NCBI GenBank assembly: GCA_040384945.1
Contig: JAZKII010000058.1
Span: forward strand, 1 to 61,242
Source: Pseudomonadota bacterium
Lineage (GTDB): Bacteria > Pseudomonadota > Alphaproteobacteria > Rickettsiales > UBA1997
Reading direction: 5' to 3'
DNA length: 61,242 nt
Of the stretch, positions 5,260 to 47,999 are shown in pieces. The translations under genes were made by a program, and so were the position numbers. The notes beneath the pieces were generated by a model. It was not told the origin of the DNA and did no database searches. It saw only the letters and a list, made by a program, of their open reading frames with translations. Within the stretch, counting starts at the first letter, position 1; every line of letters starts with the position of its first letter.

Positions 5260-5317
5260 TTTGGTTAAGGATGTGTAAAAGCTGTGCGCAGCAGGATCTC
5301 CAGCAGGACTTGCAGCA

Positions 5318-5365
5318 GGACGGGATTTTTAATCCCGTCCTAATGTTCATGTAAAATGTGACGAG
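5318..5365. repeat. Family-A half element (left hairpin plus spacer start)
   Basis: ggacgggatttttaatcccgtcctaatgttcatgtaaaatgtgacgag. The hairpin and the gttcatg..aaaatgtg spacer match the full elements, and the right hairpin is missing. Confidence 0.7.
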
Positions 5366-5372
5366 TATGGAT

Positions 5373-6912: not shown

Positions 6913-7935
6913 ATGTTTGATTTTTCATCCTTCCTCAATCTCCCTTTAATCTTCGGCTGCGTAATCGCATTCTCCATTTTCATGTATGTACTTCTCGATG
7001 GTTTCGATCTCGGCATCGGAATCATTTTCCCCTTCGCCCCCACCGACGAATGCCGCAGCAAAATGATGAATTCCGTCGCCCCTTTCTGGGATGGCAATGA
7101 AACCTGGCTCGTCATGGGCGGCGCGGGTTTATTCGCCGCTTTCCCCGCCGCTTATTCGGTGTTAATGCCCGCATATTACATCCCAATTATTCTCATGCTT
7201 TTAGGATTAATTTTCCGCGGTGTCGCTTTTGAATTCCGCGCCAAAACCAAATCACAACGCGAACAACGCATTTGGGATTATTCATTTCACTTCGGATCTT
7301 TGATCGCCACCTTTTTCCAAGGCACAATTTTAGGCGCTTTTGTTCAGGGCGTAAAAGTTGAAAATCTGTCTTTTGTTGGACATCCATTCGACTGGCTAAA
7401 TGCATTTTCCGTTACCACCGGAATTGCTCTAATCTTTGGCTACGCCTTAATCGGCAGCACTTGGCTAATTATGAAAACCCACGATAAAACCCAAATTTGG
7501 GCGCGATATGTTGCAACTTATGTCGTTAGTTTTGTGGCATTTTTTACAGCTTTAGTAAGCGGCTGGACTTCATTTTTAAAAATCGAAATTTTCGAACGCT
7601 GGTTTACCAAACCGACAATTTTTTATCTTTTACCAATTCCGGTAATTACGATTTTAGGATTTATTTTTTTGATCAAAGGCTTGAATGAAAAGAAAGAATC
7701 ACAACCTTTTTTAACAGTAATTTTCCTGTTTGTTTTATGTTACGCCGGTTTGGCGATCAGCCTGTTTCCTTATGCCGTGCCTTACGCACTAACCTTCAAA
7801 GATGCCGCCGCCGCTTCAACTTCGCTGTCACTTTTATTCGTAGGAGTAGCAATTGTTATGCCGGTGATTTTGACTTATACCGCTTTTTCTTACCACGTGT
7901 TTCGCGGGAAATCGTCGCATGAGAATTTGTATTAG
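6913..7935 (+). CDS. cydB: Cytochrome bd ubiquinol oxidase subunit II
   Basis: LLDGFDLGIGI and APFWDGNETWLV blocks are present. The protein is polytopic and starts 5 nt after cydA. Confidence 0.9.
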   Translation: MFDFSSFLNLPLIFGCVIAFSIFMYVLLDGFDLGIGIIFPFAPTDECRSKMMNSVAPFWDGNETWLVMGGAGLFAAFPAAYSVLMPAYYIPIILMLLGLIFRGVAFEFRAKTKSQREQRIWDYSFHFGSLIATFFQGTILGAFVQGVKVENLSFVGHPFDWLNAFSVTTGIALIFGYALIGSTWLIMKTHDKTQIWARYVATYVVSFVAFFTALVSGWTSFLKIEIFERWFTKPTIFYLLPIPVITILGFIFLIKGLNEKKESQPFLTVIFLFVLCYAGLAISLFPYAVPYALTFKDAAAASTSLSLLFVGVAIVMPVILTYTAFSYHVFRGKSSHENLY

Positions 7936-8189
7936 AGTGTGATTCAAACCCGAGTAAAACAAACTGTCCTGAATTTATGCCAAAGGTGATTAATGTAATA
8001 TTGATACAACTATATGATTTAGATTACATTTTTCTTACTTAGATATTGATAATAAAATTTGTTCGAAATTAAATTTTCGCAAACATCCTAAAATTAATAT
8101 TTAAAATCCAGTTTTATCACCCGAAACACAAACCAGAAGCATGATTACCCTCTCATTTTACAATATAACAAAGCAAGTTTCTCAGCCGG

Positions 8190-8305
8190 AAAATTTTCGA
8201 GGTGTAAATTATCAGCATCAAAAGTGGGGTGATGTAAGAATTTGGCAAGATGCGAATGGTGATGCGCAAACTGATGCAGATGAGTTAAAAACTCTGAGGT
8301 TTGGC
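8190..8305 (+). pseudogene. Remnant of an RTX-family gene
   Basis: aagtggggtgatgtaagaatttggcaagatgcgaatggtgat.. translates to KWGDVRIWQDANGDAQTDADELKTL. It aligns to 10603-10680 of the giant gene (KWSDLRIWQDANGDGVTDAGELKTL). There is no start codon and a stop follows shortly. Confidence 0.7.
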
Positions 8306-8307
8306 CT

Positions 8308-9198
8308 ATGTTAGGTGAATTTTTTTTATTAAAATTTTTAACAAGTCTATTTGGTCTGTTCCTATCTTTTACCTTTGTTTATTTGCCAATCATCTTGGCG
8401 ATAATTGCCTATCGTAGAAAGTGGGGAATAAAAAAATTTCTAAAGAGAGTTGTTGAGTCAGTTACTCTAATAATCACCACTATAATAGTGGTTGTAGGAG
8501 TTTTAGTTTTACTTGGTCATTTTACCGAAATTAAAGACCCAGTAGAAGAAATGATTAATAACCCACAAAAATATAAAAATATGCCATGTTTTGAAGTAGA
8601 ATTTAACAAAGAGAAATACTGTTTTGATAGAAGTAGAGCTTACATTGAGAATAAATATGTAAGTCGCACAACAGGAGAAGATGAGAGTGCTGAAATTTAT
8701 TTCATCCCCAGAATTCTATCAAATTTTCCGATCGAACACAGAGAAGTAAGAGTTTATTTAAAAGTGGATAAGCATCACAGGGATGATGTTAACGAGCCTG
8801 AGTATTTTGTGCGCGGTGCTGTTAAAGACGATTCAAGAGAAGGAAAGGTTTTTAAAAAACTGATTGATAAAGCTAAAGATGGGGAGTTTGTTGAGATAAC
8901 AAAGATGCTAAAGTCTGACTGGTTGCATGGAGGAAAAAAGCATTTTACCGTCATTTTTAACAGCAGAATTGTTTTGAGCTTAATCGCTACATCAAATAAA
9001 TATTTTAAATTCATAGGACAAACTACTTTTCAATCCCCAATCCAAGCAATATACTTTGAATTTCAGTTAGTTTCCAACCAATCAACTCAACAAGAATTTC
9101 TTAAAACCTTGCTTGATGTCGCTCAAGAATTTAACCAATTCTTAACCGATTCAAAAGTTAGCAACCAACCATTATCAACCAACTCAACCACCAATTGA
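8308..9198 (+). CDS. Hypothetical membrane protein (2 N-terminal TM helices), translationally coupled to the RTX gene
   Basis: 296-aa ORF with TM segments LTSLFGLFLSFTFVYLPIILAIIAY and LIITTIIVVVGVLVLLGHF. Its stop is 1 nt before the RTX ATG at 9200. I recognise no family. Confidence 0.55.
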   Translation: MLGEFFLLKFLTSLFGLFLSFTFVYLPIILAIIAYRRKWGIKKFLKRVVESVTLIITTIIVVVGVLVLLGHFTEIKDPVEEMINNPQKYKNMPCFEVEFNKEKYCFDRSRAYIENKYVSRTTGEDESAEIYFIPRILSNFPIEHREVRVYLKVDKHHRDDVNEPEYFVRGAVKDDSREGKVFKKLIDKAKDGEFVEITKMLKSDWLHGGKKHFTVIFNSRIVLSLIATSNKYFKFIGQTTFQSPIQAIYFEFQLVSNQSTQQEFLKTLLDVAQEFNQFLTDSKVSNQPLSTNSTTN

Positions 9199-9199
9199 T

Positions 9200-22057: not shown

Positions 22058-22066
22058 AGATGAATT

Positions 22067-23326: not shown

Positions 23327-23331
23327 GAAAT

Positions 23332-23362
23332 AAGGGAATAGGGAATAGGGGGTAGGAAATAG
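23332..23362. repeat. Array of 4 GGGAATA-type heptamers upstream of the four-helix-bundle gene
   Basis: aagggaatagggaatagggggtaggaaatag is complementary in register to the C-rich array at 23730-23762. Confidence 0.8.
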
Positions 23363-23363
23363 T

Positions 23364-23720
23364 ATGGCTATAGAAAGGTTTGAGGATATTAAGGCTTGGC
23401 AGAAGGCTCAGGATTTGGCTGTGGATGTTTATTTTATATTCGGAAAAATAAAAGATTTTGGATTTAGAGATCAAATTTGTCGTGCAGTAGTTTCGGTATC
23501 AAGCAATATAGCAGAAGGATTTAGCCGTAGTAGTAATGCCGATTTTGTTCGTTTCCTTTACATAGCAATTGCTTCCTGCAATGAAGTAAGATCATTGCTT
23601 TATCTGGCTCAAAGACTTGATTATTTACCACCAGAAAGAAAAGACTATTTAACAAAAAATGCAGACGAAGTGGCAAAAATTATCAAAGGATTGATAAAAT
23701 CAATGACAAAAAAATCATGA
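23364..23720 (+). CDS. Four-helix-bundle protein (23S rRNA intervening-sequence protein / Avd-like family)
   Basis: 118 aa with FEDIKAWQKAQDLAVDVY..FRDQICRAVVSVSSNIAEGFSR.S..DFVRFLYIA.AS..E....L.LA. This is the classic pattern of this family. Confidence 0.8.
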   Translation: MAIERFEDIKAWQKAQDLAVDVYFIFGKIKDFGFRDQICRAVVSVSSNIAEGFSRSSNADFVRFLYIAIASCNEVRSLLYLAQRLDYLPPERKDYLTKNADEVAKIIKGLIKSMTKKS

Positions 23721-25417
23721 CCAAACCAACCTATCCCCTATCTCCTATTCCCTATTTCCTAGCATGCTGCAAGCGTGCTTTCTACTTTTGTCTGCTATTT
23801 AGTTTTTTTATCAGCATTTTTACTCTCGCTTCTTCAGTTTATTCGATGCAGGTTTTGGATCGGGTTTTGAGTAGTAATAGTTTTGAAACGCTGCTTTATC
23901 TCACCATTATTGTTTTGGCCTTTTTGATTTTTCTGGGAATTTTAACTCAAGTTCGATCAACAATATTTTTACATATTTCCAATTGGCTCGATGAAAAATT
24001 GTCGCCGGTTTTATTCAATAGCAGCATCGAAGCGCAAGGCTCAAATAAAAATATCAGCAGCCAAAATATGCGCGATTTACAAACCATTAAAGGCTTTATT
24101 TCCGGTCCCAATCTGGCAGTGTTGTTTGATGCGCCTTTTGCGATTGTTTACTTTCTCATGATTTTTTTCATTCACTGGATCAACGGATTAATTACTTTAG
24201 TTGGTGGATTGGTAATGTTAAAAATGGCTTACATTAACGAAAAAACCACCAAGGAATTGATTGATAAAACTAACCAAATGCAGTCTGAAGTGCTGCGGGA
24301 TTTTGAGATTATTTCTTCCAATTCTGAAGTGATTAATGCGATGGGAATGAAAGGAAATGTGCGCGGAAATTGGCAGGCTGGTAATGATGAATTGCGCAAA
24401 GCTTCAGCGGATTTGGCCACTCTTACCAATCGAATTTCTACAATTTCCAAAACACTTAGAATGGCGCTGCAAACTTTAACAATGGCCTCAAGTGCAATTT
24501 TAGTGATGTTTAACAAAATGTCTTCCGGTGGAATTATCGCCACTTCAATTTTAGCCGGTAAAGCGCTGGCGCCATTTGATAATGCTATTGGACTTTGGAA
24601 ATCATTTAAAACAACCAAAGCCGCTTATCTGCGTTTGAATGAATCGCTAAAAAATTATGTTGAAGATAAAGGGAAAATAGAACTCCCAATTCCAACGGGA
24701 GAAATTGTGGTTGAGAAGTTGATCTATAAAATTCCCAACTCCGATCGCCTTCTCATCAAAGGCGTTTCTTTCAAGATTAATCCGAGTGAAGTAATCGGAA
24801 TTATTGGTCCAACCGGCAGCGGGAAAACTACTTTAGCCCGGCTTTTAGTTGGTGTTTTAAAGCCTAGTTCAGGAATTGTAAAAATTGATGGCGCCAATCT
24901 TTTTGATCAGGATTTAGAAAAAACCGGCAAACATATCGGCTATTTGCCGCAAGATGTTGAGTTGTTTAAAGGCTTGGTAAAACATAATATCGCCAGAATG
25001 AATAAAGAAGCCCAAGCCGAAGAAATCATCAAAGCCGCAAAATTTTGCGATGTTCATGAAATTATTTTATCACTATCGCAAGGCTACGAAACAGTGATTG
25101 AAAAAGATGCTGCAAATTTATCGGCGGGACAAAAGCAAAGAATTGCTTTGGCTCGTGCTTATTTTGGCGATGTAAAATTTGTGGTTCTTGACGAGCCAAA
25201 TTCCAACCTTGATGCGGAAGGAGAAAATGCTTTAAATAATGCAATTCTTCGCGCCAAAGAAAATGCCATCACAACTGTTATAATTACTCACCGTACTTCA
25301 GCAATTTCAATATGCGATAAAGTGATGCTGTTAAAAGATGGCGAAGTAAAAGCATTTGATAATGCGGATAAGATTTTAGGAAAATCATCGCAAGCAGCTT
25401 TGGGAGTAGGGGCATGA
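23717..25417 (+). CDS. Type I secretion ABC transporter, PrtD/AprD-like (no N-terminal C39/CLD domain)
   Basis: SMQVLDRVLSSNSFETL lies in TM1. Walker A GPTGSGKTT, signature LSAGQKQRIALARA and Walker B VVLDEPNSNLD are present. It is 566 aa and shares a 4-nt ATGA overlap with the previous gene. Confidence 0.9.
   Translation: MTKPTYPLSPIPYFLACCKRAFYFCLLFSFFISIFTLASSVYSMQVLDRVLSSNSFETLLYLTIIVLAFLIFLGILTQVRSTIFLHISNWLDEKLSPVLFNSSIEAQGSNKNISSQNMRDLQTIKGFISGPNLAVLFDAPFAIVYFLMIFFIHWINGLITLVGGLVMLKMAYINEKTTKELIDKTNQMQSEVLRDFEIISSNSEVINAMGMKGNVRGNWQAGNDELRKASADLATLTNRISTISKTLRMALQTLTMASSAILVMFNKMSSGGIIATSILAGKALAPFDNAIGLWKSFKTTKAAYLRLNESLKNYVEDKGKIELPIPTGEIVVEKLIYKIPNSDRLLIKGVSFKINPSEVIGIIGPTGSGKTTLARLLVGVLKPSSGIVKIDGANLFDQDLEKTGKHIGYLPQDVELFKGLVKHNIARMNKEAQAEEIIKAAKFCDVHEIILSLSQGYETVIEKDAANLSAGQKQRIALARAYFGDVKFVVLDEPNSNLDAEGENALNNAILRAKENAITTVIITHRTSAISICDKVMLLKDGEVKAFDNADKILGKSSQAALGVGA
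23730..23762. repeat. Array of 4 TATYCCC-type heptamers, the inverted partner of 23332-23362, inside the ABC gene 5' end
   Basis: cctatcccctatctcctattccctatttcctag is translated as YPLSPIPYFL at the N-terminus of the ABC transporter. Confidence 0.8.
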
Positions 25418-26652
25418 AGATAGGAAAAATCGAATCAAAAATTGCGGAAAATTCTATTAATTACGGAGTTAAATCCCTGATTCTTTTTGCGGTAATTTTT
25501 CTGGGCTGGGCGGCGTTTTTACCAATTCAATCTGCTTCAATTGCGGATGGTGTTATTGTGCTCGATTTCAATCGCAAAAACATTCAGCATTTGGAAGGTG
25601 GCATCATTGATCAGATTCTGGTTAAAGAAGGACATATTGTAAATGAGGGAGATGTTTTGCTTTATCTTCACGACATCAGAGCCAAAACCGAGCAGCAGAT
25701 TTTAAAAGAAAGATTGTGGGCGATGCAGCTACAAAAAGAGCGCCTCGAAGCTGAAAAAGAAAATAAACAAAATTTGAATCTGGAGAATTTTTTCTCGGAA
25801 GTCGGGGAATTGGCGCAAGATGATAATTCCAAATTGCAGGAAATTGCCGCGAATCAATTAAGGCTTTTCAAATCAAGAAGTGGTAAGAGAAAAGGGGAAA
25901 TAAAAGTTTTGGAGAAGAAGCTGAAATCAGCGGAAACGAGGTTAAGGCTTTTTCAAACAGAACTCAGCTTAATCAAACCGCTGGTTGAGGAAAATAATTT
26001 ACCGATTTTGCGGGAATTGGATTTGCAGAAATCAATCGCTCAAGCCGAAGAAGAAGCTGAAACAGCAAAATTGCAAATCGCCAATTACCAAAATAGCGAT
26101 TTGTCGGATACTCTAAAAGAAATCAAAGAAAGCGATATGGAAATCGTTGGTCTTTATAACCAACTTGCAGCCTCAAAAGATGTTTTAAAAAGATCAGCAA
26201 TTAAATCTCCGGTGTCGGGAAAGGTGATGAATATTAAATATCACACGATTGGCGCCGTTGTTCCTCCGGGCGGCGAAATTATGAATATCGTTCCGCAACA
26301 TGAAGAGCTAATTATTGAAGCCAAAATAAAGCCTCAAGACATTGATAATGTTGTCGTGGGAATGAAATCAAAAATTCAACTTACTGCTTATAAAGGCAAA
26401 AAAGTTCCAAAAATTAATGGCGAAGTAATTAATGTTGCGCCAGATATTTTAACCAACGAACAGACCAGAGAATCTTATTTCTTAGCCAGAGTCTCCATCA
26501 GCAAAAAAGACATCGAAAAACTCAAAAGCAAAGTTGAACTTTACCCTGGAATGCCCGCGCAAGTCTTCATCATAACCGGATCGCGGTCTCTAGTTTCTTA
26601 CATGTTTACACCAATTTCAGATTCAGCTTATAAGGCGTTTAGGGAAGAATAA
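25414..26652 (+). CDS. HlyD-family type I secretion membrane fusion protein
   Basis: One N-terminal TM helix, then DGVIVLDFNRKNIQHLEGGII..ILVKEGHIVNEGDVLL (lipoyl-like block). A long coiled coil follows, then a C-terminal beta domain with PGMPAQVFI. It overlaps the ABC gene by 4 nt. Confidence 0.9.
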   Translation: MKIGKIESKIAENSINYGVKSLILFAVIFLGWAAFLPIQSASIADGVIVLDFNRKNIQHLEGGIIDQILVKEGHIVNEGDVLLYLHDIRAKTEQQILKERLWAMQLQKERLEAEKENKQNLNLENFFSEVGELAQDDNSKLQEIAANQLRLFKSRSGKRKGEIKVLEKKLKSAETRLRLFQTELSLIKPLVEENNLPILRELDLQKSIAQAEEEAETAKLQIANYQNSDLSDTLKEIKESDMEIVGLYNQLAASKDVLKRSAIKSPVSGKVMNIKYHTIGAVVPPGGEIMNIVPQHEELIIEAKIKPQDIDNVVVGMKSKIQLTAYKGKKVPKINGEVINVAPDILTNEQTRESYFLARVSISKKDIEKLKSKVELYPGMPAQVFIITGSRSLVSYMFTPISDSAYKAFREE

Positions 26653-26757
26653 TCGCAGCACTTTAAAAGCAAAATTGCGCGAACTTATTGAAATGAAAAA
26701 AATTAAAACTGAAGTGTGGTTTATGAAATTTTTTAGAAAAAATTAAAATATAAAATT

Positions 26758-26932
26758 ATGCAAATCATCTGCAAAGCCAGTTACCAAGATTTAGATTCTA
26801 TTGTAAAAATTTGTTCTGCATCCAAATTATAATCGGATTTCAGTAAATTTTCATGAGAAAAATGGTTTTATGAAAATGGCTGAGTTGAAAGAAACCGACA
26901 GGATGGTTGGGGTATTTGTAAAAAAATTATGA
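26758..26932 (+). pseudogene. Internally deleted GNAT acetyltransferase remnant
   Basis: A GNAT-like N-terminus MQIICKASYQDLDSIVKICSASKL runs into a stop. A GNAT-like C-terminus NRISVNFHEKNGFMKMAELKE..VGVFVKKL follows. The core is missing. Confidence 0.5.
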
Positions 26933-26990
26933 GAAAAAAAAGGTGTCAAATCTCATCACAGTAGAAGAGCTCTATGGTCTCGAAATTTTT

Positions 26991-27243
26991 TAATGCGAAG
27001 AAATATCCGCTGAACCAAATCCTTGAACATCAAGCTTGGCATGGGTTGGTAAAAATTTTACGCAGGCTTCAAAAATTTCTACGCGATTTTCTCTTTTTAA
27101 CATTTCATCAAGTTTTGCTGTCACTTTTATTTGTGGGAGTAGCAATTGTGATGCCGGTGATTTTGACTTATACCGCTTTTTCTTATCATGTATTTCGCGG
27201 GAAGTCTTCGCATGAGAATTTGTATTAGAGTGTGATTCAAACC
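26991..27243. pseudogene. Chimeric scar: copy of the rnd 3' end (26991-27119, antisense) fused to a copy of the cydB 3' end (27117-27243)
   Basis: 26991-27119 aligns to 35620-35748 with 9 mismatches in 129 nt. 27117-27243 aligns to 7824-7950 with 8 mismatches in 127 nt, all synonymous. The junction shows gct microhomology. Confidence 0.9.
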
Positions 27244-27295
27244 TGTGAAAAAAGGTTCTGACATTGATTTAAATAAAGAATTGTCGGAGTGTCGA

Positions 27296-27319
27296 GATTT
27301 GACAACTTTTCACCTTTTT
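27296..27319. repeat. Left 24-bp inverted repeat flanking the ankyrin gene
   Basis: The reverse complement of gatttgacaacttttcaccttttt matches 28423-28446 at 23 of 24 positions. Confidence 0.85.
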
Positions 27320-27398
27320 TGGCCGCGCGATTTACGACAAAAAAATTGCTACAGCAGATTTGGTAACTCTTTAAGAAAATTTTAACTAAATTTTTACA

Positions 27399-28424
27399 GT
27401 GGAAAAAAATACTTCGTCGAAAAAACCAGATCTATCAATAAAGATCTTACCCGCGGATTCTAACGATCCTCAAACTAAAAATATTACCAAATACAATTAT
27501 ACTCCAGAAAATTTCCCTCGTCTCCCAGCTCCTCTAAGAGGAGTACTCTACGACAAGGATGAATCTGAGAGGTATAATGATGAGGTTGATAAAAGACAAA
27601 ATAGATTTAGGGAGTGGAAAAAAGGTCGTGTTGTGACAAAAAAAGAGATGCTAGAGATGGATGATGGTACAAAAGAGTTTTTCGCTGATGTGCTGGATCT
27701 AGAGAGAACAATTACAAGATATTCGCGATTGCCAATTGTTCTTGCAGCAAGACAGGGTGATTTCGAAAAGGTTAAAGATATTTTAACAAAAACGGCTCAA
27801 ATACCTACTCCTAACACCCACATTATAATTGGAAAGCACTACGCCCTAGAAGCAGCGGTACAAGAAAACAATTGGGATGTAGCCAATTTACTTTTGTTGG
27901 AAGGAGCTTCTGTTGAATTTTCTTCTGATGAAAAACACTCTACACTTTTGATGCAAGCAATTGAGCGTGAAGATTCTGAAGCTTTGGCATTTCTAATTTC
28001 ACACAAAGCAAATCCTAATTGCGTTAATCCCGACAACAAAACCGCCCTGCAACTCGTTGCTGAAAAAAACAATCCCCAACTTTTTTGTCAGTTGGTTTCG
28101 TTAGTATTGAATGAGCAAATCAAGAAAGCAGAAGAATTTACTAATCAAACCGACAAGAAAGAAGAATTTACTGAGGAAGCCGTCAAAAAAGAAAATTGGG
28201 CAAACAGAGAAGATTGGAAAATATTACAAAACGAATTTTCTAACCCAAAATTAGGCGAAGCCAACTTATTAGCCGTAACAGAAATTTTGCCACAGGGAGA
28301 TTTGTTAGATTCGATTAGGCAAACATTGGCTGACCTTCGTGCTAAAACAGGAAGTTCAGTAACTTCAGCACACGCGGTAATTGTGAGCAACATCTCTAAA
28401 GACACTAAATTAACACTTCCTTAA
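27399..28424 (+). CDS. Ankyrin-repeat protein (candidate host-targeted effector)
   Basis: ANK-like repeats: LPIVLAARQGDFEKVKDIL, ALEAAVQENNWDVANLLLLEGASV, TLLMQAIEREDSEALAFLISHKANPN, KTALQLVAEKNNPQL. The ORF has a GTG start and no signal peptide. Confidence 0.75.
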   Translation: MEKNTSSKKPDLSIKILPADSNDPQTKNITKYNYTPENFPRLPAPLRGVLYDKDESERYNDEVDKRQNRFREWKKGRVVTKKEMLEMDDGTKEFFADVLDLERTITRYSRLPIVLAARQGDFEKVKDILTKTAQIPTPNTHIIIGKHYALEAAVQENNWDVANLLLLEGASVEFSSDEKHSTLLMQAIEREDSEALAFLISHKANPNCVNPDNKTALQLVAEKNNPQLFCQLVSLVLNEQIKKAEEFTNQTDKKEEFTEEAVKKENWANREDWKILQNEFSNPKLGEANLLAVTEILPQGDLLDSIRQTLADLRAKTGSSVTSAHAVIVSNISKDTKLTLP

Positions 28425-28446
28425 AAAGGTGAAAAGGTGTCAAATC
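28423..28446. repeat. Right 24-bp inverted repeat flanking the ankyrin gene (overlaps its stop codon)
   Basis: aaaaaggtgaaaaggtgtcaaatc. A partial third copy (aaaaggtgtcaaatct) lies at about 26937-26952. Confidence 0.85.
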
Positions 28447-28501
28447 TTAAAAACTTGAAAATTAATCGAAAAGCTACCTTTGTTTTGTTTCTAGCCTCAA
28501 A

Positions 28502-28761
28502 CTTCATTAGAACCAATTGGTGATGTAGTTTCTTACAGCGCTTATACTTGGGGCCGAGATAGCGGAGCTCTTTACCAAAGTCCTTATTCTTTAAGCACAC
28601 AGCCGGATAGATATCATTTTAAACTTACAAATGGTGCGACAGTTGATATTGGAAATGATGGTAAAACTATTACTTCCAGAATGACAAAGTTGCGTGATCT
28701 TTTCCCCGATGAAATCATTCCCAATTATGATTTAGCTTCCGGCTCGCAATCAACCAATTCG
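28502..28761 (+). pseudogene. 260-bp internal fragment copied from the 32261-35575 gene
   Basis: Aligns colinearly to 33801-34060 with about 4 mismatches. It encodes SLEPIGDVVSYSAYTW..GSQSTNS and has no start codon of its own. Confidence 0.9.
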
Positions 28762-28873
28762 CAATTGAGACAGTTTATATTTTTCGTTGGAAGAAATATG
28801 GCAAACTACTTGTAAGGTATTAATAACGGATTTAAGACTTAGAAAAATGTCTTCTTCACCAATCAAAATTAAA

Positions 28874-29455
28874 ATGAAAAACAAATCCTTAAAATCTCTT
28901 TTAGCAGCGCTCATTCTTTTATCATCGTTAATGTTGGCAGATGCATCTCTTGCTCAAATCAGCAAATCATCAATTCAGAATAGTGAACAATTGGTTGAAG
29001 ATCCTGATCTTAAACTTTCGATTAAGGAATTGAGAAAAAAATATCCGATTGGTTGGTTGAAAAAGAAATATGGTGATCCTGAAAAATATTATGATTTTTG
29101 TAGTACAATAGATTATGTTGAACCGGCAGAAGAAGCACCGCCCAAAAATTTAGTATGTAATTTTCAGGCTATAAAATATCCATTTAAAACATTTTCTGAT
29201 TCTGAAATCAGAAGTGTTGTTGTGAATCTTAAAGTAGATGAGTTTGATTTCAGAATCGAACAAATTGCTTTAATTGCTTTAGAATATTTTGAAAAGACAC
29301 CCGAAAGTTCCTTAACCTCTAAGGAAAAATTATTGAGGAATTTTATTTACTCGGATCAGGTAACAACTCTTTTTAAGAAATTAAGAAACTGTATAGTGAT
29401 TAAGCATGTAAGGTATAATTGTGCTAAACCTTTGGGTAATTCACAAAAACTATAA
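28874..29455 (+). CDS. Secreted-protein family member P1 (Sec signal peptide, unknown function)
   Basis: MKNKSLKSLLAALILLSSLMLADASLAQ signal. Family motifs DPDLKLSIKELRKKYPIGWLKKKYGD, PKNLVCNF and LRNFIYSDQV are present. The start was chosen by analogy with P2, where an upstream stop excludes the longer form. Confidence 0.7.
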   Translation: MKNKSLKSLLAALILLSSLMLADASLAQISKSSIQNSEQLVEDPDLKLSIKELRKKYPIGWLKKKYGDPEKYYDFCSTIDYVEPAEEAPPKNLVCNFQAIKYPFKTFSDSEIRSVVVNLKVDEFDFRIEQIALIALEYFEKTPESSLTSKEKLLRNFIYSDQVTTLFKKLRNCIVIKHVRYNCAKPLGNSQKL

Positions 29456-29460
29456 ACCGA

Positions 29461-29589
29461 AATTCCGGGGACAGTTTACCTAATTAAAATTTTCATTTTG
29501 AAGCAAATACCTGAGAATCATTTGTAATGCATTGGTAACAAATTTAAAACTTAGAAAAATGTCTTCTTCACAAATCACAAACTAAAAAA
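29461..29589 (+). repeat. Conserved ~125-bp leader/promoter repeat (copy 1) upstream of P2
   Basis: aattccggggacagtttacctaattaaaattttcattttgaagcaaatacctgagaatcatttgtaatgcattggtaacaaatttaaaacttagaaaaatgtcttcttca.. It carries ttgaag (29498-29503) and tgtaat (29523-29528) hexamers spaced 19 nt apart. Confidence 0.8.
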
Positions 29590-30375
29590 ATGACAAACAA
29601 ATCTTTAAAATCTTTTTTAACAGCGCTCACTCTTTTATCATCGTTAATGTTTGCGCATGCAGCTTTTGCTCAAATCAGCAAATCACAAATTCAGAATAGT
29701 GAACAATCGGTTGAAGATCCTGATCTTAAACTTTCGATTGAGGAATTGAGAAAAAAATATCCAATTGAGTGGTTTGATTCAAAATTTGGGGAGTATTATA
29801 AATGTGCGACTGATTCAGAAGGGGAGTATGACGATCCAAAATTAATTTGCCGATTAACTATAAATAAAAATTATTTTAAAAATAAATTACGTGATGGATC
29901 TAAAATAAAATTATTTGATCCATTGAGACAATTAAATGAATCACAAATCAAAAGCATAATTGTTCATCATAGCAATAAAGTGTATGACGATGGTTACCCA
30001 GATATTAGGCTAGATAATATTTTAGAAATTTTAGAAATACAAACTGCAGATACAAAAAACACAAATCCTCTAAAAACAAGAATTAAAGATTTTCTCTATT
30101 CCGATGTTGCTGTTAATTCATTTAAAAATCTTTCTTGTGAATCACTATCTAAATTTGATGTCAATAACTCTCATTACGATTCATTAGCCTTAGAATATTT
30201 TAGAAAAATATATTTTCAAACGAGTGGGAATGCTGATAAATTAGAATATTTTAGAAAAATATATTTTCAACCGAGCATGCTTGATGATGATTTGAAGGAA
30301 TGCCTCCCCCCTAAGCAGCGTAGTCTAATTAGAAAGAAACTTTTAGAGGAATTAAAAACTAAAATTAGGGAATAA
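29590..30375 (+). CDS. Secreted-protein family member P2, directly upstream of the small M23 peptidase
   Basis: MTNKSLKSFLTALTLLSSLMFAHAAFAQ signal and DPDLKLSIEELRKKYPIEW motif. There is an internal duplication LEYFRKIYFQ(T/P)S. The stop is 3 nt before the next ATG. Confidence 0.8.
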   Translation: MTNKSLKSFLTALTLLSSLMFAHAAFAQISKSQIQNSEQSVEDPDLKLSIEELRKKYPIEWFDSKFGEYYKCATDSEGEYDDPKLICRLTINKNYFKNKLRDGSKIKLFDPLRQLNESQIKSIIVHHSNKVYDDGYPDIRLDNILEILEIQTADTKNTNPLKTRIKDFLYSDVAVNSFKNLSCESLSKFDVNNSHYDSLALEYFRKIYFQTSGNADKLEYFRKIYFQPSMLDDDLKECLPPKQRSLIRKKLLEELKTKIRE

Positions 30376-30378
30376 CTA

Positions 30379-30771
30379 ATGACAAAATATATAGAATTAT
30401 CTCTTCCTGTACCGGAAGGTACAAAAATAAATAGTGAGTATGGCCAGCGTCAGAAGGGATCTGGGTATCACTATGGAATAGATTTTAATGTTTTACCTAA
30501 AACAGAAATTACCTCTGCAGCACCCGGAACAGTAATTAGAATTATTCGTAATCATAAAGATTTTGGAAACGTTATAGTAATAAAACATGCTGAAGATCAG
30601 GCAACTTTATATGCTCATTTAAGCAGTATTAAAACTGGAATTAATGACCCGGTAACAGAATCTACTCTTATTGGATTATCTGGTTCAACCGGAAGAAGTG
30701 AGGGACCTCATTTACATTTTGAAGTAATTGAAGGAGCAAACAATAATTCAGGGGACAGTTTACCTAATTAA
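30379..30771 (+). CDS. Minimal leaderless M23 (LytM-domain) metallopeptidase, 130 aa
   Basis: HxxxD motif in GYHYGIDF and HxH motif in GPHLHFEV, with YAHLSS between them. There is no N-terminal signal peptide. Confidence 0.85.
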   Translation: MTKYIELSLPVPEGTKINSEYGQRQKGSGYHYGIDFNVLPKTEITSAAPGTVIRIIRNHKDFGNVIVIKHAEDQATLYAHLSSIKTGINDPVTESTLIGLSGSTGRSEGPHLHFEVIEGANNNSGDSLPN

Positions 30772-30869
30772 AATTTTCATTTTGAAGCAAATACTTGAAA
30801 ATTATTTGTAATGCATTGGTAACAAGTTTAAAACTTAGAAAAATGTCTTCTTCACCAATCAAAATTAAA
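30751..30869 (+). repeat. Leader repeat (copy 2) upstream of P3; its 5' end supplies the M23 gene C-terminus and stop
   Basis: ggggacagtttacctaattaaaattttcattttgaagcaaatacttgaaaattatttgtaatgcattggtaacaagtttaaaacttagaaaaatgtcttcttca.. Confidence 0.8.
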
Positions 30870-31454
30870 ATGAAAAACAAATCTTTAAAATCTCTTTTAG
30901 CGGCTCTAACACTTTTATTATCGCTAATGTTTGCGCATGAAGCTATTGCTCAAACTGATAAGTCATCAGCACAAAATAGTGCACAATATGACATTGATGA
31001 TTCAGATCTTTCAATTGAGGAACTAAAGAAGAAATATCCGCCAAGTTTATTGGATAAAAAGAATAAGGCTTATAAGCCAGGGCAGAAAGTTGATATTAAA
31101 GATTACTCAATTGCTGAGGTAAAAGCAGCGTTTCTGAATGCGGATAAGAATTTTATTTCGAGGATACCAATGAATGAAATTCCAAGAACAGCTTCAGGAA
31201 AATATGATTCTTATATTTCTGATAATGATGTAATTGCGCATAGTCAACTTGAGCTCGATATAATTGATGCATCTTGTAATAAATTTGGATTGAGGGTTTA
31301 TACCGCGCCAAAAAAATATGAGATACTTCAATCGTTTATTTTTTCTTCAGATAAAATTCGAATTCATTCTATGCGCTTCCTTCCACAAAAAACCGAAGTA
31401 TGTCTTTTTACCAATGATCCTTTAGGAGTTGAAGATCATAACGACTATACATAA
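30870..31454 (+). CDS. Secreted-protein family member P3 (divergent)
   Basis: MKNKSLKSLLAALTLLLSLMFAHEAIAQ signal and DDSDLSIEELKKKYPPSLL motif. The remainder is divergent. Confidence 0.7.
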   Translation: MKNKSLKSLLAALTLLLSLMFAHEAIAQTDKSSAQNSAQYDIDDSDLSIEELKKKYPPSLLDKKNKAYKPGQKVDIKDYSIAEVKAAFLNADKNFISRIPMNEIPRTASGKYDSYISDNDVIAHSQLELDIIDASCNKFGLRVYTAPKKYEILQSFIFSSDKIRIHSMRFLPQKTEVCLFTNDPLGVEDHNDYT

Positions 31455-31493
31455 TCAATATTTTAATCTCATGCCGTTCTTCCTCACTCGCAA

Positions 31494-31621
31494 AATTCCG
31501 GGGACAGTTTACCTAATTAAAATTTTCATTTTGAAGCAAATACCTGAGAATCATTTGTAATGCATTGGTAACAAATTTAAAACTTAGAAAAATGTCTTCT
31601 TCACAAATCACAACTAAAAAA
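31494..31621 (+). repeat. Leader repeat (copy 3) upstream of P4
   Basis: Near-identical to copy 1. It differs by a 1-nt indel just upstream of the A7 run that precedes the ATG. This indel puts the upstream MSSSQIT.. ATG in frame. Confidence 0.8.
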
Positions 31622-32245
31622 ATGACAAACAAATTTTTAAAATCTCTTTTAGCAGCGCTCATTCTTTTATCATCGCTAATGTTTGCGCATGCAGCTATTG
31701 CTCAAATCAGCAAATCAAAGATTCAAAATAGTGAACAATTAGGTGAAGATCCTGATTTAAAACTTTCTATTAAGGAATTGAGAAAAAAATATCCGATTGG
31801 TTGGTTGAAAAAGAAATATGGTGATTCCAAGCATCCATCGTGTGGGAATTCTGATGGAGCTTTTGAATATGAAGGTCCGATTCCAAAAAATCTTATATGC
31901 TCTTTTTTTACTAATGATATGTATTCCAAAAGCGATACATCCAAACTTATACCCTCATTCTCATTAGATCTTGAATTTTTCTCAAACAATCAAATCAAAA
32001 GTGCATTGATTGAGTATAACAATCTTTGGAAACAACACAGAGCTAGTGATGATGAAAGAGTAAGGGAAATAGTTATACTTGCGCTTCTGACTTTTGAAGA
32101 AAAAACAAATACTCTTACCGAAAATCAAAAAGAGCTAAAAAACTTTATTTATAAAAGCCAATTACTTCCAGTTTTACAAGATGCGATAGAGTGTAAGTAT
32201 GTCAATAGTGCCTACCAAACAAAAATTACCTGCCCAGTAAAATAA
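31622..32245 (+). CDS. Secreted-protein family member P4, directly upstream of the large M23 protein
   Basis: MTNKFLKSLLAALILLSSLMFAHAAIAQ signal. DPDLKLSIKELRKKYPIGWLKKKYGD, PKNLICSF and LKNFIYKSQL motifs are present. It ends 15 nt before the next gene. Confidence 0.8.
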   Translation: MTNKFLKSLLAALILLSSLMFAHAAIAQISKSKIQNSEQLGEDPDLKLSIKELRKKYPIGWLKKKYGDSKHPSCGNSDGAFEYEGPIPKNLICSFFTNDMYSKSDTSKLIPSFSLDLEFFSNNQIKSALIEYNNLWKQHRASDDERVREIVILALLTFEEKTNTLTENQKELKNFIYKSQLLPVLQDAIECKYVNSAYQTKITCPVK

Positions 32246-32260
32246 TTTATTTAATAATCT

Positions 32261-35200
32261 ATGCCAAGCTTAAAACTTCAATATCCACCGTTAAGCACTT
32301 TTGTCATTAGCAGCGAAAAGGGTCCAAGAATTAGTCCAACCACCAATATACCAACTGTTCACGAGGGAATAGATTTTGCAATTGCAGATGGAACGAATTT
32401 ATATAATGCTCATGATGGAACAGTGATATTTTCTGGAACATCTGTGGGATATGGAAATACAATTGTAATACAGGATAAGATTAGTGGGGAATCAACTCTA
32501 TATGCTCATCTAAGTGCAATATTTTTTCACAAGAGCGATCCTATAACTGGTAAAACCCCAATTGGTACAACAGGTAATAGTGGAACTAGCGCATATCACC
32601 TTCATTTTGAAGTCTTAAGTAAAGAAATTTCTGATAACTTAGCATCAAGCTCTAGTGGAAAAATACCAAAGTCAGGCCGTCTCAACCCACGCTCTTACAT
32701 TGCTGCTTCCCCTTTTGCATCAATGCTCTCAACTGAAGTACATAGTAAGGAATTAGGCTTTGGCACAAGAGAAGGAGATAGTCGTTCCAACACCATGGTT
32801 CGCGACAATGTTGGAACATATTATGGCACTCAAATGGTCTTTGATGGCAAAGAAGGATATGATACATATAAACTTAAACTTTCTTACACCGGCCAGAGAA
32901 TTGTAAAAAATACAAAAGACACTCATATAGTTCAAAGCCAAGATGCTATAAGTGATGCTGATTTAGATGGCAAAATAATAATCGATACCGGATCTCAAAA
33001 TATTCTTCTTTCCGGCAATGCTCTTCCAAAAACCGGAGTTTTAGGAGAGATTATAGCGGGAGAATGGACGTTAGATGGGTTAAATCTTTTACAAGATGGA
33101 GATGATCTAGTTGCGACTAAACTTGGTGTAAAACTTGCTGATTTTAAAGGAATTACAAATCCTAAAGTTCCAACTATTCCTATCAAAAACTTCCCTTTCT
33201 CCAATTCCCGCGGTGGCTTTGGAATTACATTAGGGAAAAAAGCTGATCTAAGTTTAGGCGAAGATGTTTTCAGCCTGACATTAACCGATTCTTATTTGCC
33301 ACAAGGCGCATTTGCTGTGGCTTCATCCGACAAAGGATTATTTGGTTCTTTGGCGATGCTTGATTCTCAAGGCTCGGAATTACCTGTTTCTCACAGCATT
33401 GGAGTTTTCGATAATTTCGGAAATCAATTAGCAACTCACGATGTTGAAACTGTAGTTAAATCATCTGTTGATGCTGAGATGTTAACTCCAGAAATTGGAG
33501 TAGGGATTAGAATCGGAGCTGGATATTCTTCCGGTGGATATGTTGTATTTCCGATTGCAGAAAGTGGCTATATTGCTGGCGGAAGTTTGCAATCCAGAGT
33601 TGGCGCACTTTTAACTGATGCTTCAGGTAATGTTTTAGCAGCCAATATTTACGACAACACCAATTCCCAAACCCAAAATAAAGTCGCTCGCAATGGTGCA
33701 ATCTTGGTCGGCAAAGATGATCCCAGTAAATTATATTTTAGCTACTCACTAGAAAATATCGGCCGCGATGTCGGAACTATGGTTTATCAAATTGACCCAA
33801 CTTCATTAGAACCAATTGGCGATGTAGTTTCTTACAGCGCTTATACTTGGTCTAGAGATAGCGGAGCTCTTTACCAAAGTCCTTATTCTTTAAGCACACA
33901 GCCGGATAGATATCATTTTAAACTTACAAATGGTGCGACAGTTGATATTGGAAATGATGGTAAAACTATTACTTCCAGAATGACAAAGTTGCGTGATCTT
34001 TTCCCCGATGAAATCATTCCCAATTATGATTTAGCTTCCGGCTCGCAATCAACCAATTCGGAATTAGCACAACAAATTTTAACTTTGGGTGATGCAACAA
34101 TTCTTGATGTTGTTGAAAATCCTAATTCTGTAGTGGCAGTTTTAAATCTTGATCCAACTACAAATCCCAATTCAAAAGTAACTTTCTCTGCTTTTGATTC
34201 TTCACAGGTTGCAGCTTATGCAACTGATTCGAGCCAATATAGCATTGATGCGCTTTTAAGCGGTGAAGCCAAAACTTCTGATATGCAATTGGTTTATGGC
34301 GCAGCGCGAACCAGAAGATTAACTGATGGCGTTGAGGATGTTACCGATCCTTATTATTATTCTTATGGCAGCAACGCTACCTATTCAGATTATTATTACG
34401 GGTCAAATTATGGCAATTATACGGATGATTCTGTTGCCGATGATGATGAATTACCTGCTTTAATCTCATATCCTTACACTTTTCTTGAACTGCCGAATAA
34501 CCAGACTGTAGTTTTAGTTGGTGTAAATGGCACGGAACTTGCACAATCTCCGTATAGTTTTTTTCTGACTAGTGAAAATATAACTCATGCCCCATCAAGC
34601 TATCCAAGCGGGCAGCCAACTCCCAACCCTTTTGCAATTTCCAGAGCAGAACCAACAAGTCAGCCATCAAATCAGCCGACAGTTCCACCTTCAATTCAAC
34701 CAAGTACACAACCAACCGGCGAACCTTCATCACAACCAACTTATCTTCCGACGGTAGGAGAGATAATAAGCACAAGTCCAACTTCATTACCATCGTCTGC
34801 TCAGCCAACTGGTCAGCCTTCAATTCAACCAAGTACACAACCAACCGGCGAACCTTCATCACAACCAACTTATCTTCCGACGGTAGGAGAGATAATAAGC
34901 ACAAGTCCAACTTCATTACCATCGTCTGCTCAGCCAACTGGTCAGCCTTCAATCCAACCAAGCAGAAAACCATTTGCTCATCCAAGTACAATTCCATCCT
35001 ATAAACCAGCGGCGATTCCATCTTTTAAGCCAACTAGACCAAGCGTGCAGCCAACCACAGAGGCTTCGGCACAATTAAATTCTAATCCCAGCGCGCAGCC
35101 AAGTTCTAGGCCAACAAATAATCCTTCATTAGATCCAACTCATCATCCAATTGCCGGCGATTTATCTGTAAGTCCTACATCACAACCAAGTGTTAATCCA

Positions 35201-35575
35201 AGTTCACAACCAAGTCAGAAACCAAGCAGGAATTTAAGAACTGCGAGTCCGACAAGTTCTAGCCCGGTGAGTGACAAGCCAATCAGCATCTATCCAACAG
35301 CAATTCCGACAGTTATGGGAACAGGATTTCCAACAATCAATTCTACTTTTAATCAATCTTTGCCGCAATTTCCAAATCAAATTCCAACTCATAATCAAAA
35401 TTCCAATTTTATGGAAAGCCCGGGAGGGATTGCTGTTGCGGCTACAGCAGCATTGTTATTAACAGTAGTTGGGTTGAAATGGGTTTTTAGAAAAGGTGAG
35501 CCAAAGGTGAGCCCAGAGAAAGCTTACGCATCTCAGGTAGAGCAGAGTAATGGGATAGGATTAGGAAAAGGCTAA
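32261..35575 (+). CDS. 1104-aa protein: N-terminal M23 peptidase domain, central unknown domain, Tyr/Asp-rich and P/S/T/Q-rich repeats, C-terminal TM anchor
   Basis: VHEGIDFA (HxxxD) and AYHLHFEV (HxH), with no signal peptide. PS.QPT-type repeats run from about nt 34585 to 35400. A TM helix GGIAVAATAALLLTVVGLKWVF lies at about 35423-35491 and is followed by a basic tail. Confidence 0.8.
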   Translation: MPSLKLQYPPLSTFVISSEKGPRISPTTNIPTVHEGIDFAIADGTNLYNAHDGTVIFSGTSVGYGNTIVIQDKISGESTLYAHLSAIFFHKSDPITGKTPIGTTGNSGTSAYHLHFEVLSKEISDNLASSSSGKIPKSGRLNPRSYIAASPFASMLSTEVHSKELGFGTREGDSRSNTMVRDNVGTYYGTQMVFDGKEGYDTYKLKLSYTGQRIVKNTKDTHIVQSQDAISDADLDGKIIIDTGSQNILLSGNALPKTGVLGEIIAGEWTLDGLNLLQDGDDLVATKLGVKLADFKGITNPKVPTIPIKNFPFSNSRGGFGITLGKKADLSLGEDVFSLTLTDSYLPQGAFAVASSDKGLFGSLAMLDSQGSELPVSHSIGVFDNFGNQLATHDVETVVKSSVDAEMLTPEIGVGIRIGAGYSSGGYVVFPIAESGYIAGGSLQSRVGALLTDASGNVLAANIYDNTNSQTQNKVARNGAILVGKDDPSKLYFSYSLENIGRDVGTMVYQIDPTSLEPIGDVVSYSAYTWSRDSGALYQSPYSLSTQPDRYHFKLTNGATVDIGNDGKTITSRMTKLRDLFPDEIIPNYDLASGSQSTNSELAQQILTLGDATILDVVENPNSVVAVLNLDPTTNPNSKVTFSAFDSSQVAAYATDSSQYSIDALLSGEAKTSDMQLVYGAARTRRLTDGVEDVTDPYYYSYGSNATYSDYYYGSNYGNYTDDSVADDDELPALISYPYTFLELPNNQTVVLVGVNGTELAQSPYSFFLTSENITHAPSSYPSGQPTPNPFAISRAEPTSQPSNQPTVPPSIQPSTQPTGEPSSQPTYLPTVGEIISTSPTSLPSSAQPTGQPSIQPSTQPTGEPSSQPTYLPTVGEIISTSPTSLPSSAQPTGQPSIQPSRKPFAHPSTIPSYKPAAIPSFKPTRPSVQPTTEASAQLNSNPSAQPSSRPTNNPSLDPTHHPIAGDLSVSPTSQPSVNPSSQPSQKPSRNLRTASPTSSSPVSDKPISIYPTAIPTVMGTGFPTINSTFNQSLPQFPNQIPTHNQNSNFMESPGGIAVAATAALLLTVVGLKWVFRKGEPKVSPEKAYASQVEQSNGIGLGKG
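34688..34945 (+). repeat. Exact tandem duplication, 2 x 129 bp (43 aa), in the proline-rich region
   Basis: The unit PSIQPSTQPTGEPSSQPTYLPTVGEIISTSPTSLPSSAQPTGQ occurs twice, with copies starting at 34688 and 34817. A third copy starts and then diverges. Confidence 0.9.
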
Positions 35576-35618
35576 TCTATCTAAATGTATAACTTTTGCC
35601 CCATACGATTTTGATTTT

Positions 35619-36230
35619 CTAATGCGAAAAAATATCAGCTGAACCAAACCCTTGAACATCAAGCTTGGCGCGGGTTGGTAAAAATCTCACGCAGGCTTCA
35701 AAAATCTCTACACGATTTTCTCTTTTTAACATTTCATCAAGTTTTGCTTTCAACTTATGCAAATGCAAAACGTCGGAAGCGGCGTATTCTAACTGTTTCT
35801 CGGTAATTTCAGCATTTCCCCAATCGGAAGTTTGTTGTTTTTTGGAAAGTTCAATTCCTAAAAGTTCATCGCAAAGTGATTTTAATCCATGGGCGTCGGT
35901 GTATGTACGAACTAATTTCGAAGCAATTTTGGTGCAGTAAATATTTTTGATTTCAACTTTTAAATAATGCTGCAAAGCCGCTAAATCAAAGCGGGCGAAG
36001 TGGAAGATTTTCTGAATTTTTTCGTCAGCCAAAAGTTTACACAAATTCGGCGCGTCATATTTTCCTTGTTCAAATTGCACCAAATGCGCATCGCCATTGC
36101 CATCGGAAATTTGCACCACGCAAAGACGATCGCGAATTATGTTTAAGCCCATTGTTTCGGAATCAATGGCAATTGAGCCTTTAAACTGAATGTCGGAAGG
36201 CAGATCGTTTTTATGTAAAAAATTTGTCAT
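35619..36230 (-). CDS. rnd: Short ribonuclease D-like 3'-5' exonuclease (DEDDy)
   Basis: IAIDSETMGL (Exo I), HFARFDLAAL (Exo II) and YAASDVLHL (Exo III YxxxD); 203 aa. Confidence 0.8.
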   Translation of the reverse strand: MTNFLHKNDLPSDIQFKGSIAIDSETMGLNIIRDRLCVVQISDGNGDAHLVQFEQGKYDAPNLCKLLADEKIQKIFHFARFDLAALQHYLKVEIKNIYCTKIASKLVRTYTDAHGLKSLCDELLGIELSKKQQTSDWGNAEITEKQLEYAASDVLHLHKLKAKLDEMLKRENRVEIFEACVRFLPTRAKLDVQGFGSADIFSH

Positions 36231-40659: not shown

Positions 40660-40700
40660 GAATTCTTGATTTAAGAATTTTTGATTTGAGTAAGAATTTG

Positions 40701-40790
40701 AGCAAGACGGGATTTGTAATCCCGTCTTCGCGTTCATGCAAAATTAATTGAACTGAAAATGTGAACGGGGTTACAAACACCGTCCAGCGC
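40701..40790. repeat. Family-A full double-hairpin element between the convergent GT4 and polA genes
   Basis: agcaagacgggatttgtaatcccgtcttcgcgttcatgcaaaattaattgaactgaaaatgtgaacggggttacaaacaccgtccagcgc. Confidence 0.85.
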
Positions 40791-40827
40791 TAAGGGTTGG
40801 GGGGTTTTGCGGTCTTAATTTATTTTA

Positions 40828-46044: not shown

Positions 46045-46076
46045 ATTTACTTTTTAGATTTTCTACTTTCTAAAAC

Positions 46077-46280: not shown

Positions 46281-46288
46281 AATTTTTT

Positions 46289-47992: not shown

Positions 47993-47999
47993 AAATTTT

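Follow-up and report, generated by a model that had tools for sequence, protein, structure and literature searches.

Two unrelated islands stacked between cydB and an rnd-like gene, joined by a scar of displaced gene ends, in a Rickettsiales-like metagenomic contig

The contig JAZKII010000058.1 (61,242 nt, here called the window, which is the entire contig) belongs to a short-read metagenome-assembled genome (MAG) held at NCBI under locus tags of the series V4694_038xx, and carries two unrelated accessory islands stacked between a pair of convergent housekeeping genes, cydB and an rnd-like exonuclease gene. The islands are joined through second copies of the 3' ends of both genes, giving the order cydB, island 1, rnd'|'cydB, island 2, rnd, in which rnd' and 'cydB are 5'-truncated fragments that meet at a three-nucleotide microhomology. 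Our preferred account, in which we have moderate confidence, is that homeologous DNA from a donor was integrated duplicatively, one of its joins being formed by homologous recombination and the other at a microhomology. On the left core flank, the intact cydB (6913..7935, plus strand; MES2961492.1) encodes the 340-aa subunit II of cytochrome bd oxidase (Pfam PF02322, E 1e-91); on the right, the intact rnd-like gene (35619..36230, minus strand; MES2961508.1) encodes a 203-aa DEDDy 3'-5' exonuclease (PF01612, E 4e-42). Because the latter scores 88.5 bits against TIGR01388, under the 299-bit cutoff, its product is not certified as RNase D and is treated here as a putative RNase-D-like exonuclease.

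The scar and the divergence of its gene ends

Two pairs of direct repeats define the structure. The last 36 codons of cydB, its stop codon and a 24-nt trailer (AGTGTGATTCAAACCCGAGTAAAA) occupy 7824..7959 on the plus strand and recur at 27117..27252 on the same strand as the 'cydB fragment, all eight of its coding differences being synonymous. On the minus strand, the last 43 codons (stop included) of the intact exonuclease gene and a 5-nt trailer, at 35614..35748, recur at 26985..27119 as the rnd' fragment (the last 42 codons, stop and 5-nt trailer), which GenBank annotates as a 44-aa hypothetical protein, MES2961499.1. A repeat search recovers both pairs as gapless 139-nt families with exactly two copies each in the contig and with matches far beyond chance: D18 for cydB (7821-7959 / 27114-27252, 91% identity) and D17 for rnd (26985-27123 / 35614-35752, 92%). 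The original prediction had placed the cydB repeat at 7824-7950 / 27117-27243 and the rnd repeat at 35620-35748 / 26991-27119; both are present, and the similarity reaches 9 nt further in the former, to 7959/27252, so completing the 24-nt trailer, and 5 nt past the stop in the latter (35614-35618 / 26985-26989). The join itself is located by exact runs (7824-7838 = 27117-27131 and 35713-35748 = 27084-27119), and the rnd' and 'cydB copies therefore overlap in GCT at 27117..27119, a novel junction linking cydB position -111 to rnd position -129. The predicted head-to-tail abutment through GCT agrees with these coordinates, as does the predicted order of genes, fragments and islands with the positions of the repeats. 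Around the GCT lies an imperfect 10-nt patch, TTnGCTnTCA, in which 8/10 positions match. The insert is thus bracketed by direct repeats of recipient sequence, one copy intact and one truncated, and its novel joint falls within the range of ~3-10 bp microhomologies.

Both islands start 3' of the identical 24-nt trailer and stop before the identical 5-nt trailer. These trailers are missing from the empty sites of relatives and were found nowhere else, which is why both alleles would appear to descend from a single ancestral alteration of the spacer. A sequence search at the scar for extended homology of the island ends, further trailer copies, terminators or promoters returned nothing informative.

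The divergence between the copies carries much of the argument. Across the 36 codons of the cydB copy there are eight differences, every one a third-position synonymous change, and the stop codon is identical; Nei-Gojobori counts (S=26.3, N=81.7) give a synonymous divergence (dS) of 0.39 and a non-synonymous divergence (dN) of 0. The binomial probability of such a bias is 1.2e-5, and 0/20000 simulations were as extreme. Across the 42 codons of the rnd copy there are five synonymous changes, three replacements (F>S, R>H, R>K) and a TAG>TAA change of stop, with no indel (dS=0.27, dN=0.031, dN/dS=0.12; P 0.004-0.04), and the two fragments combined give P=5e-5 for so few replacements under neutral mutation. 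The ratio dN/dS is well below 1 in both pairs (cydB 0, rnd 0.12), with the caveat that the changes private to rnd' are decay-like. The possibility that the dead fragments diverged solely through neutral decay was considered and is ruled out for cydB (P ~1e-5); it is still compatible with the private changes of rnd', unlike those of cydB.

When the differences are polarised with six relatives as outgroup, derived states common to the intact and fragment alleles emerge at cydB sites 57, 84 and 111 (the TAG stop) and at rnd site 54, and on account of these the intact and fragment alleles are sisters. Private changes number at least five (5-7) in the 'cydB fragment, all synonymous, and 1-2 in intact cydB. 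In rnd there are five per allele: four synonymous changes and K>R in the intact gene; R>H (two bases), F>S, one synonymous change and the stop change in rnd'. The R and F sites altered in rnd' are invariant in all 14 full-length homologues of its 90% cluster and also in relatives at 73-82% identity. The strong synonymous bias of the 'cydB fragment shows that it diverged under purifying selection, as part of a working gene in another lineage. The R>H and F>S changes of rnd' look like decay after the event, and would show that some time has elapsed since that fragment died. The original prediction thus fares unevenly here. Its statement that all eight cydB differences are synonymous and the encoded residues identical was reproduced on re-alignment, with dN 0 and no replacement or frameshift, and its tally of five synonymous and three replacement changes without a frameshift in rnd also stands; its description of all three replacements as conservative does not, since R>H and F>S hit invariant residues. 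Likewise, its view that the copies derive from a functional, diverged allele survives for cydB, on the synonymous bias, and fails for rnd', whose private changes look like decay in place.

The same changes bear on an alternative in which the entire history took place at the locus: a 269-nt unit (cydB 3' end, ~29-nt spacer, rnd 3' end) would have been tandemly duplicated within one genome and its two spacers separately filled; the lack of replacements in 'cydB would be due to its translation, as the C-terminal membrane helix encoded by a putative chimeric 84-aa open reading frame (ORF; 26974..27228, plus strand). This ORF is open antisense through rnd', continues in frame into the C-terminal helix formed by the last 36 residues of CydB and has a GAAGAG motif upstream of its ATG, and the private changes of rnd' do look neutral (3 replacement nt vs 2 silent). 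Such a history nevertheless calls for three separate events, two of them insertions at exactly the same nucleotide of the spacer, and for a long time for 'cydB to gain its 5-7 private synonymous changes when the full copy gained 1-2, over which time rnd' acquired no indel or stop. The ORF, moreover, has no homologue or record in look-ups (no identical product is on record, and its sole family match is a weak one to the CydB C-terminus) and no promoter-like site upstream on the plus strand. We regard this alternative as very unlikely.

The site in relatives and the routes to a stacked arrangement

Proteins identical to those of the contig were found, by exact look-up, only in Logan contigs of run SRR26324625. 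A CydB scan of genome contigs places the nearest species-level genomes among Rickettsiales MAGs, at 74% CydB identity, and closer relatives are lake-type metagenome contigs from JGI, ENA and Logan (CydB 93-97%, rnd 96-98% identity). The screen of relatives covered 160 cydB/rnd loci (80 in each of two scans), the genomic neighbourhoods of cluster members and the proteins homologous to island genes; of these, the rnd scan of metagenome contigs, the neighbourhoods and the homologues turned up only empty sites or a T1SS locus in another place. In ~30 related contigs the site is empty, cydB and rnd being convergent with a 3-nt spacer: five close metagenome contigs have the genes 3 bases apart (TAA-AAA-CTA), and the same spacer recurs in 15 contigs with rnd variant P0018, 6 with CydB variant P0014 and 3 with rnd variant P0021. 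Among these empty-site contigs are lineages with CydB 97% and rnd 98% identical. In more distant relatives the spacer spans 3-100 nt, and two distant genomes (L004 and L036) have housekeeping inserts: gpx and EamA in one; addA, mltG and fabF in the other. Because the two genes nearly touch in relatives, the ancestral state of the site is closed, and occupancy of the cydB-rnd interval contrasts presence in one contig with absence in ~30.

Other variation was seen near the site. Several relatives in which the cydB/rnd site is empty have a two-gene insert between nagZ and rnd (L168 3931-5990, L179 7104-9163), made up of an AAA_15/AAA_21 ATPase and a 219-aa protein, which looks like a defence gene pair; in those relatives the variable spot is on the opposite side of rnd. 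A 1.3-kb contig of a close relative (JGI Ga0492675_0108562, here L178, 946-1321) carries nagZ, rnd, the 3-nt spacer and, matching L176 and L177 exactly, the final 230 nt of cydB, before an abrupt break into unrelated sequence with a 60-aa ORF; either the contig is chimeric or this is a further truncated 3' piece of cydB.

Duplicative integration of homeologous DNA would have proceeded as follows. In an ancestor with convergent cydB and rnd abutting across a 3-nt spacer, the spacer would have become occupied both in the lineage of the MAG and in an unsampled sister lineage, a type I secretion system (T1SS)/RTX locus lying in one allele and an ankyrin/M23 cluster in the other, and the two alleles would have diverged to dS ~0.3 with both flanking genes still functional. 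DNA of one allele would then have entered a cell carrying the other and been integrated additively through two joins, the first by ordinary homologous recombination in a ~92% identical flank, the second illegitimate, at GCT, fusing cydB -111 to rnd -129. Two routes can be envisaged: either the donor fragment was circularised at GCT and inserted by a single crossover of the Campbell type, or a linear fragment was anchored by homology at one end and joined by microhomology at the other, in the manner of homology-facilitated illegitimate recombination (HFIR). Either route would give the observed order, leave both housekeeping genes intact and deposit rnd'|'cydB as a scar, whose fragments would be dead remnants in which decay has begun. 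The Campbell-type crossover first proposed fits the topology, but the linear route gives the same order. Derived sites along the repeats are too few to separate circle from linear fragment or to order the islands, and we can only infer from which lineage the donor came, whether its DNA was circular or linear on entry, and which of the islands was the later arrival. Insertion of the 268-nt scar piece as 'filler DNA' into a single existing island was also considered and rejected on parsimony, the ends of the piece being exactly the trailer boundaries of the outer flanks.

Several points weigh against this account. Firstly, neither island was found alone at the cydB/rnd site among the 160 loci, the contexts of cluster members or the homologues of island 2, an absence of evidence in a sample of relatives that includes no immediate sister-lineage genome. 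Because no genome or contig has a single island at the site, the donor allele is hypothetical. The original prediction had expected relatives to have either island alone or an empty site: the empty site was found, in ~30 contigs, and the single island in none. For the same reason, its suggestion that the islands are alternative occupants of a shared hotspot, which can be drawn only from their common trailers, is not supported. Secondly, most of the changes private to rnd' replace invariant residues, and the divergence of this fragment taken alone would fit decay in place. Thirdly, homologous recombination over ~135 nt at 92% identity is inefficient, and the ability of the organism to take up DNA is an assumption of the mechanism. 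Finally, the stacked arrangement is carried by a single short-read MAG contig. The Logan assembly, an independent one of the same run, reproduces the island 1-rnd' join and the island 2-rnd join, but its contigs end before the junction (L003 at 27085, L001 at 7950), and the rnd'|'cydB join is left without a second witness.

This last point raises the prospect that the junction is an artefact of assembly or sampling, two strains of the form cydB-island 1-rnd and cydB-island 2-rnd having been merged through a chimeric read or amplification chimera at 27117-27119. The window is, after all, the entire contig of a metagenome-assembled genome, the Logan contigs from the same run are short, with none across the junction, and two alleles ~8% apart are what a mixture of strains or species would be expected to contain. 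The stop of L003 at 27085 is not explained by shared 31-mers. Set against a merger, the copies share at most 36 exact nucleotides and only 3 nt are common at the junction, so that a k-mer graph, which needs many join-carrying reads, could not have made the join without reads that contain it. Exact look-up, moreover, yielded no full-length second cydB or rnd allele from the sample, the only extra allele being the 44-aa fragment; the replacements at invariant residues in rnd' suit a dead fragment, unlike the working gene of a second strain; and a comparable stacked arrangement is present in a relative, in 7 contigs from several samples. On balance, an artefact of this kind seems quite improbable.

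Equally improbable, in our estimation, is site-specific tandem accretion, in which both islands would be integrative elements that target the cydB/rnd spacer or the 3' ends of the genes and bring replacement 3' ends with them, like e14 and phage 21 at icd or like tRNA/tmRNA islands, with an integrase since lost or acting in trans. Its appeal lies in both islands starting and ending at the same nucleotide of the same trailers, in a displaced 3' gene fragment with synonymous differences such as is typical of e14/icd elements, in the additional 5'-truncated cydB 3' fragment beside rnd in L178, and in the large serine recombinases that flank the T1SS locus of relatives. Against it, and as the original prediction had stated of integrases, no recombinase, integrase or transposase was detected with Pfam or NCBIfam among the ORFs scanned across the 61-kb contig, at the island edges or elsewhere, and the contig has no tRNA, tmRNA or Rfam match. 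No attachment (att) core beyond the trailers is common to the left end, internal boundary and right end (7960, 27119 and 35613); there is no third copy of such a core, and the internal junction fuses two different gene ends instead of forming an attL/attR pair. The cargo is a clade-conserved secretion locus and a paralogue array devoid of mobility or conjugation genes, and the breakpoints differ between L178 (-230) and the present contig (-111).

Contents of the islands and of the remaining contig

Island 1 (7960..26984, plus strand) is a type I secretion locus, recognised by Pfam and by orthologous clusters in relatives. It comprises a 296-aa protein (8308-9198), a 4285-aa RTX/cadherin/Ig/subtilase giant protein (9200-22057), TolC (22067-23326), a four-helix-bundle '23S IVP' (23S rRNA intervening sequence protein; 23364-23720), an ABC exporter (23717-25417) and HlyD (25414-26652). 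Its machinery is as close to that of relatives as core genes are (TolC 83-86%, ABC 89-90%, HlyD 87-92% identity), and the giant substrate evolves faster (52-63%). The cluster of relatives lies outside the cydB-rnd interval and adjoins serine-recombinase, retron and defence genes. The foreign origin originally proposed for island 1 is thus contradicted by machinery 83-92% identical to a locus that relatives have elsewhere, and the island is a clade-conserved T1SS/RTX locus and no foreign island. The 23S IVP gene (23364-23720) is inserted between the tolC and ABC genes, a place where relatives lack it; what relatives do carry is a 74-aa gene together with an OmpA-like one, between the giant substrate gene and tolC.

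Island 2 (27253..35613, plus strand) is a cluster of ankyrin and M23 secreted proteins: an ankyrin-repeat protein (27399-28424), four signal-peptide paralogues (28787-29455, 29590-30375, 30795-31454 and 31565-32245), a 130-aa M23 peptidase (30379-30771) and a 1104-aa M23/PT-repeat protein (32261-35575). It is essentially unique in databases, the ankyrin protein forming a singleton cluster and the M23/PT protein having one 34% homologue. Between 28787 and 32245 there are four tandem cassettes with ~350 nt of upstream and N-terminal sequence in common (repeat families D2, D7 and D11), whose paralogues have one signal peptide (MKNKSLKSLLAALILLSSLMFAHAAIAQ) and divergent C-termini, 2/4 being followed by an M23 peptidase gene. 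A 267-nt pseudo-copy of the interior of the 1104-aa gene lies at 28500-28766, in the non-coding stretch after the ankyrin gene (98% identity to 33799-34065), and would constitute a second gene-fragment scar, within island 2.

That the two islands are unrelated, as originally claimed, is upheld: their homology is limited to the 24-nt left and 5-nt right trailers, beyond which local alignment does no better than with shuffled sequences. A simple tandem duplication of one island is ruled out because the islands have no common homology along their length.

A parallel footprint is found at the T1SS locus of a relative, in which an intact 456-aa serine-recombinase gene adjoins the cluster on one side and a 5'-truncated copy of that gene on the other (7 contigs, several samples). 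The repeat is gapless over 1253 nt at 89.7% identity, with 19 synonymous and 3 replacement codons in the truncated copy. As seen at L169 6866-8462 and L165 12786-16179 (JGI Ga0633725_0000297 and Ga0633722_000763), the 1253-nt direct repeats that bracket the T1SS/RTX cluster consist of the 3' end of the large serine recombinase gene and two small genes, and a retron reverse transcriptase/helix-turn-helix pair is inserted in the 5'-truncated right copy. Because a relative has the same signature at another locus, these repeats suggest that homeologous duplicative recombination may recur around the T1SS locus. A bolder possibility, which we consider unlikely, is that the T1SS/RTX locus is an integrase-free translocatable cassette that moves between lineages and loci as a recombination-generated circle, in which 3' pieces of the genes that it once adjoined would serve as homology handles. 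If true, this would explain two independent footprints, the handles being cydB and rnd here and the serine-recombinase 3' end in the relative, and the scar would keep both islands excisable.

The flanks consist of ordinary core genes, with BamB, LeuRS, HxlR, YceI and CydAB to the left of the islands and the 203-aa DEDDy exonuclease, NagZ, HisB, SodB, two glycosyltransferases and PolA to the right. A 2424-aa ORF with a TrbL/VirB6 domain (48000-55274, minus strand) belongs to the giant VirB6 class that type IV secretion systems of Rickettsiales are known to have, and so fits the Rickettsiales affiliation; the neighbouring 250-aa ORF (47282-48034) has a weak N-terminal methylation motif. The contig termini (1-52 and 61189-61240) form a 52-nt inverted repeat with 94% identity between its arms; the assembly probably broke at a dispersed repeat. 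Palindromic elements resembling repetitive extragenic palindromes and built on GGACGGGGTTTGTAACCCCGTCC lie at 2565-2661, 5311-5372, 40698-40804 and 47107-47203, several as inverted pairs; they are mostly intergenic, with the exception of 2565-2661, inside the LeuRS reading frame (1584-4157). Directly before tatC, a 15-nt periodic repeat on the plus strand (46068-46292; TTTTTTAGCnnnnnn, at least 11 units) probably encodes, when read on the minus strand, a repeat rich in lysine and alanine.

Significance and comparison with known systems

The locus would be a clear trace, left in nature, of genes gained additively from a diverged relative with no site-specific recombinase involved, in environmental Rickettsiales-like bacteria, a group in which the mechanisms of gene flow are poorly known. 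It indicates that two accessory loci can be stacked at a normally closed site with the flanking essential genes undamaged, and the leftover gene ends, through their synonymous-only divergence, act both as an internal clock and as proof that a foreign allele was involved. Direct repeats of ~135 nt at 92% identity now flank each island, and we infer that RecA-mediated recombination could remove either one precisely or free it as a circle with homology handles of its own; the repeats left behind would thus permit the loss or onward passage of either locus. Its value is that of a worked example and of a search image: a 5'-truncated gene end beside an intact copy, with synonymous-only differences.

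Among known processes, HFIR is summarised in PMC6382021 (citing de Vries & Wackernagel 2002) as an established route for foreign DNA into naturally transformable bacteria, with microhomologies of 3-10 bp. Transformation of Acinetobacter, Pseudomonas stutzeri and Streptococcus pneumoniae provides examples. The present structure resembles HFIR, as described in PMC6382021, in that foreign DNA lies beside a homologous anchor (here ~92% identical) and has its other end at a microhomology (here GCT), with no site-specific recombinase. It differs in that HFIR was demonstrated experimentally in competent bacteria and usually deletes recipient DNA, whereas here the process is read from a natural scar in an uncultured Rickettsiales-like organism, with ~135 nt per flank duplicated and nothing deleted. 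Campbell-type insertion-duplication likewise flanks an insert with direct repeats of homology, reconstitutes an intact gene and leaves a truncated copy; unlike its classical form, a circle in this case would have come from the chromosome of a sister lineage and been closed illegitimately, with no plasmid involved, and the homology is short and 8% diverged.

The element e14 and phage 21 integrate at the 3' end of icd and bring a replacement 3' end. The resemblance is an intact target gene and a mostly synonymous displaced 3' fragment at the far end of the insert, but these elements encode an integrase and use an att core, whereas here there is no integrase and the fragment abuts a fragment of the gene on the opposite flank. 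Tandem accretion is described for the ICESt1 family, by site-specific recombination (Pavlovic et al. 2004 as cited in PMC5812530), and for the tmRNA-gene islands of Dehalococcoides, at one site (PMC3146451). As in those accounts, unrelated islands are stacked at one site with a target repeat between them; unlike those arrays, which have at least 3 copies of one att repeat and an integrase, the present locus has two repeats twice each and no integrase, and its internal boundary is a gene-gene fusion. The structure thus works like HFIR or Campbell insertion-duplication, lacks the defining features of integrase systems and, adding neither a new type of element nor a new biological principle, is a clean example of a known process.

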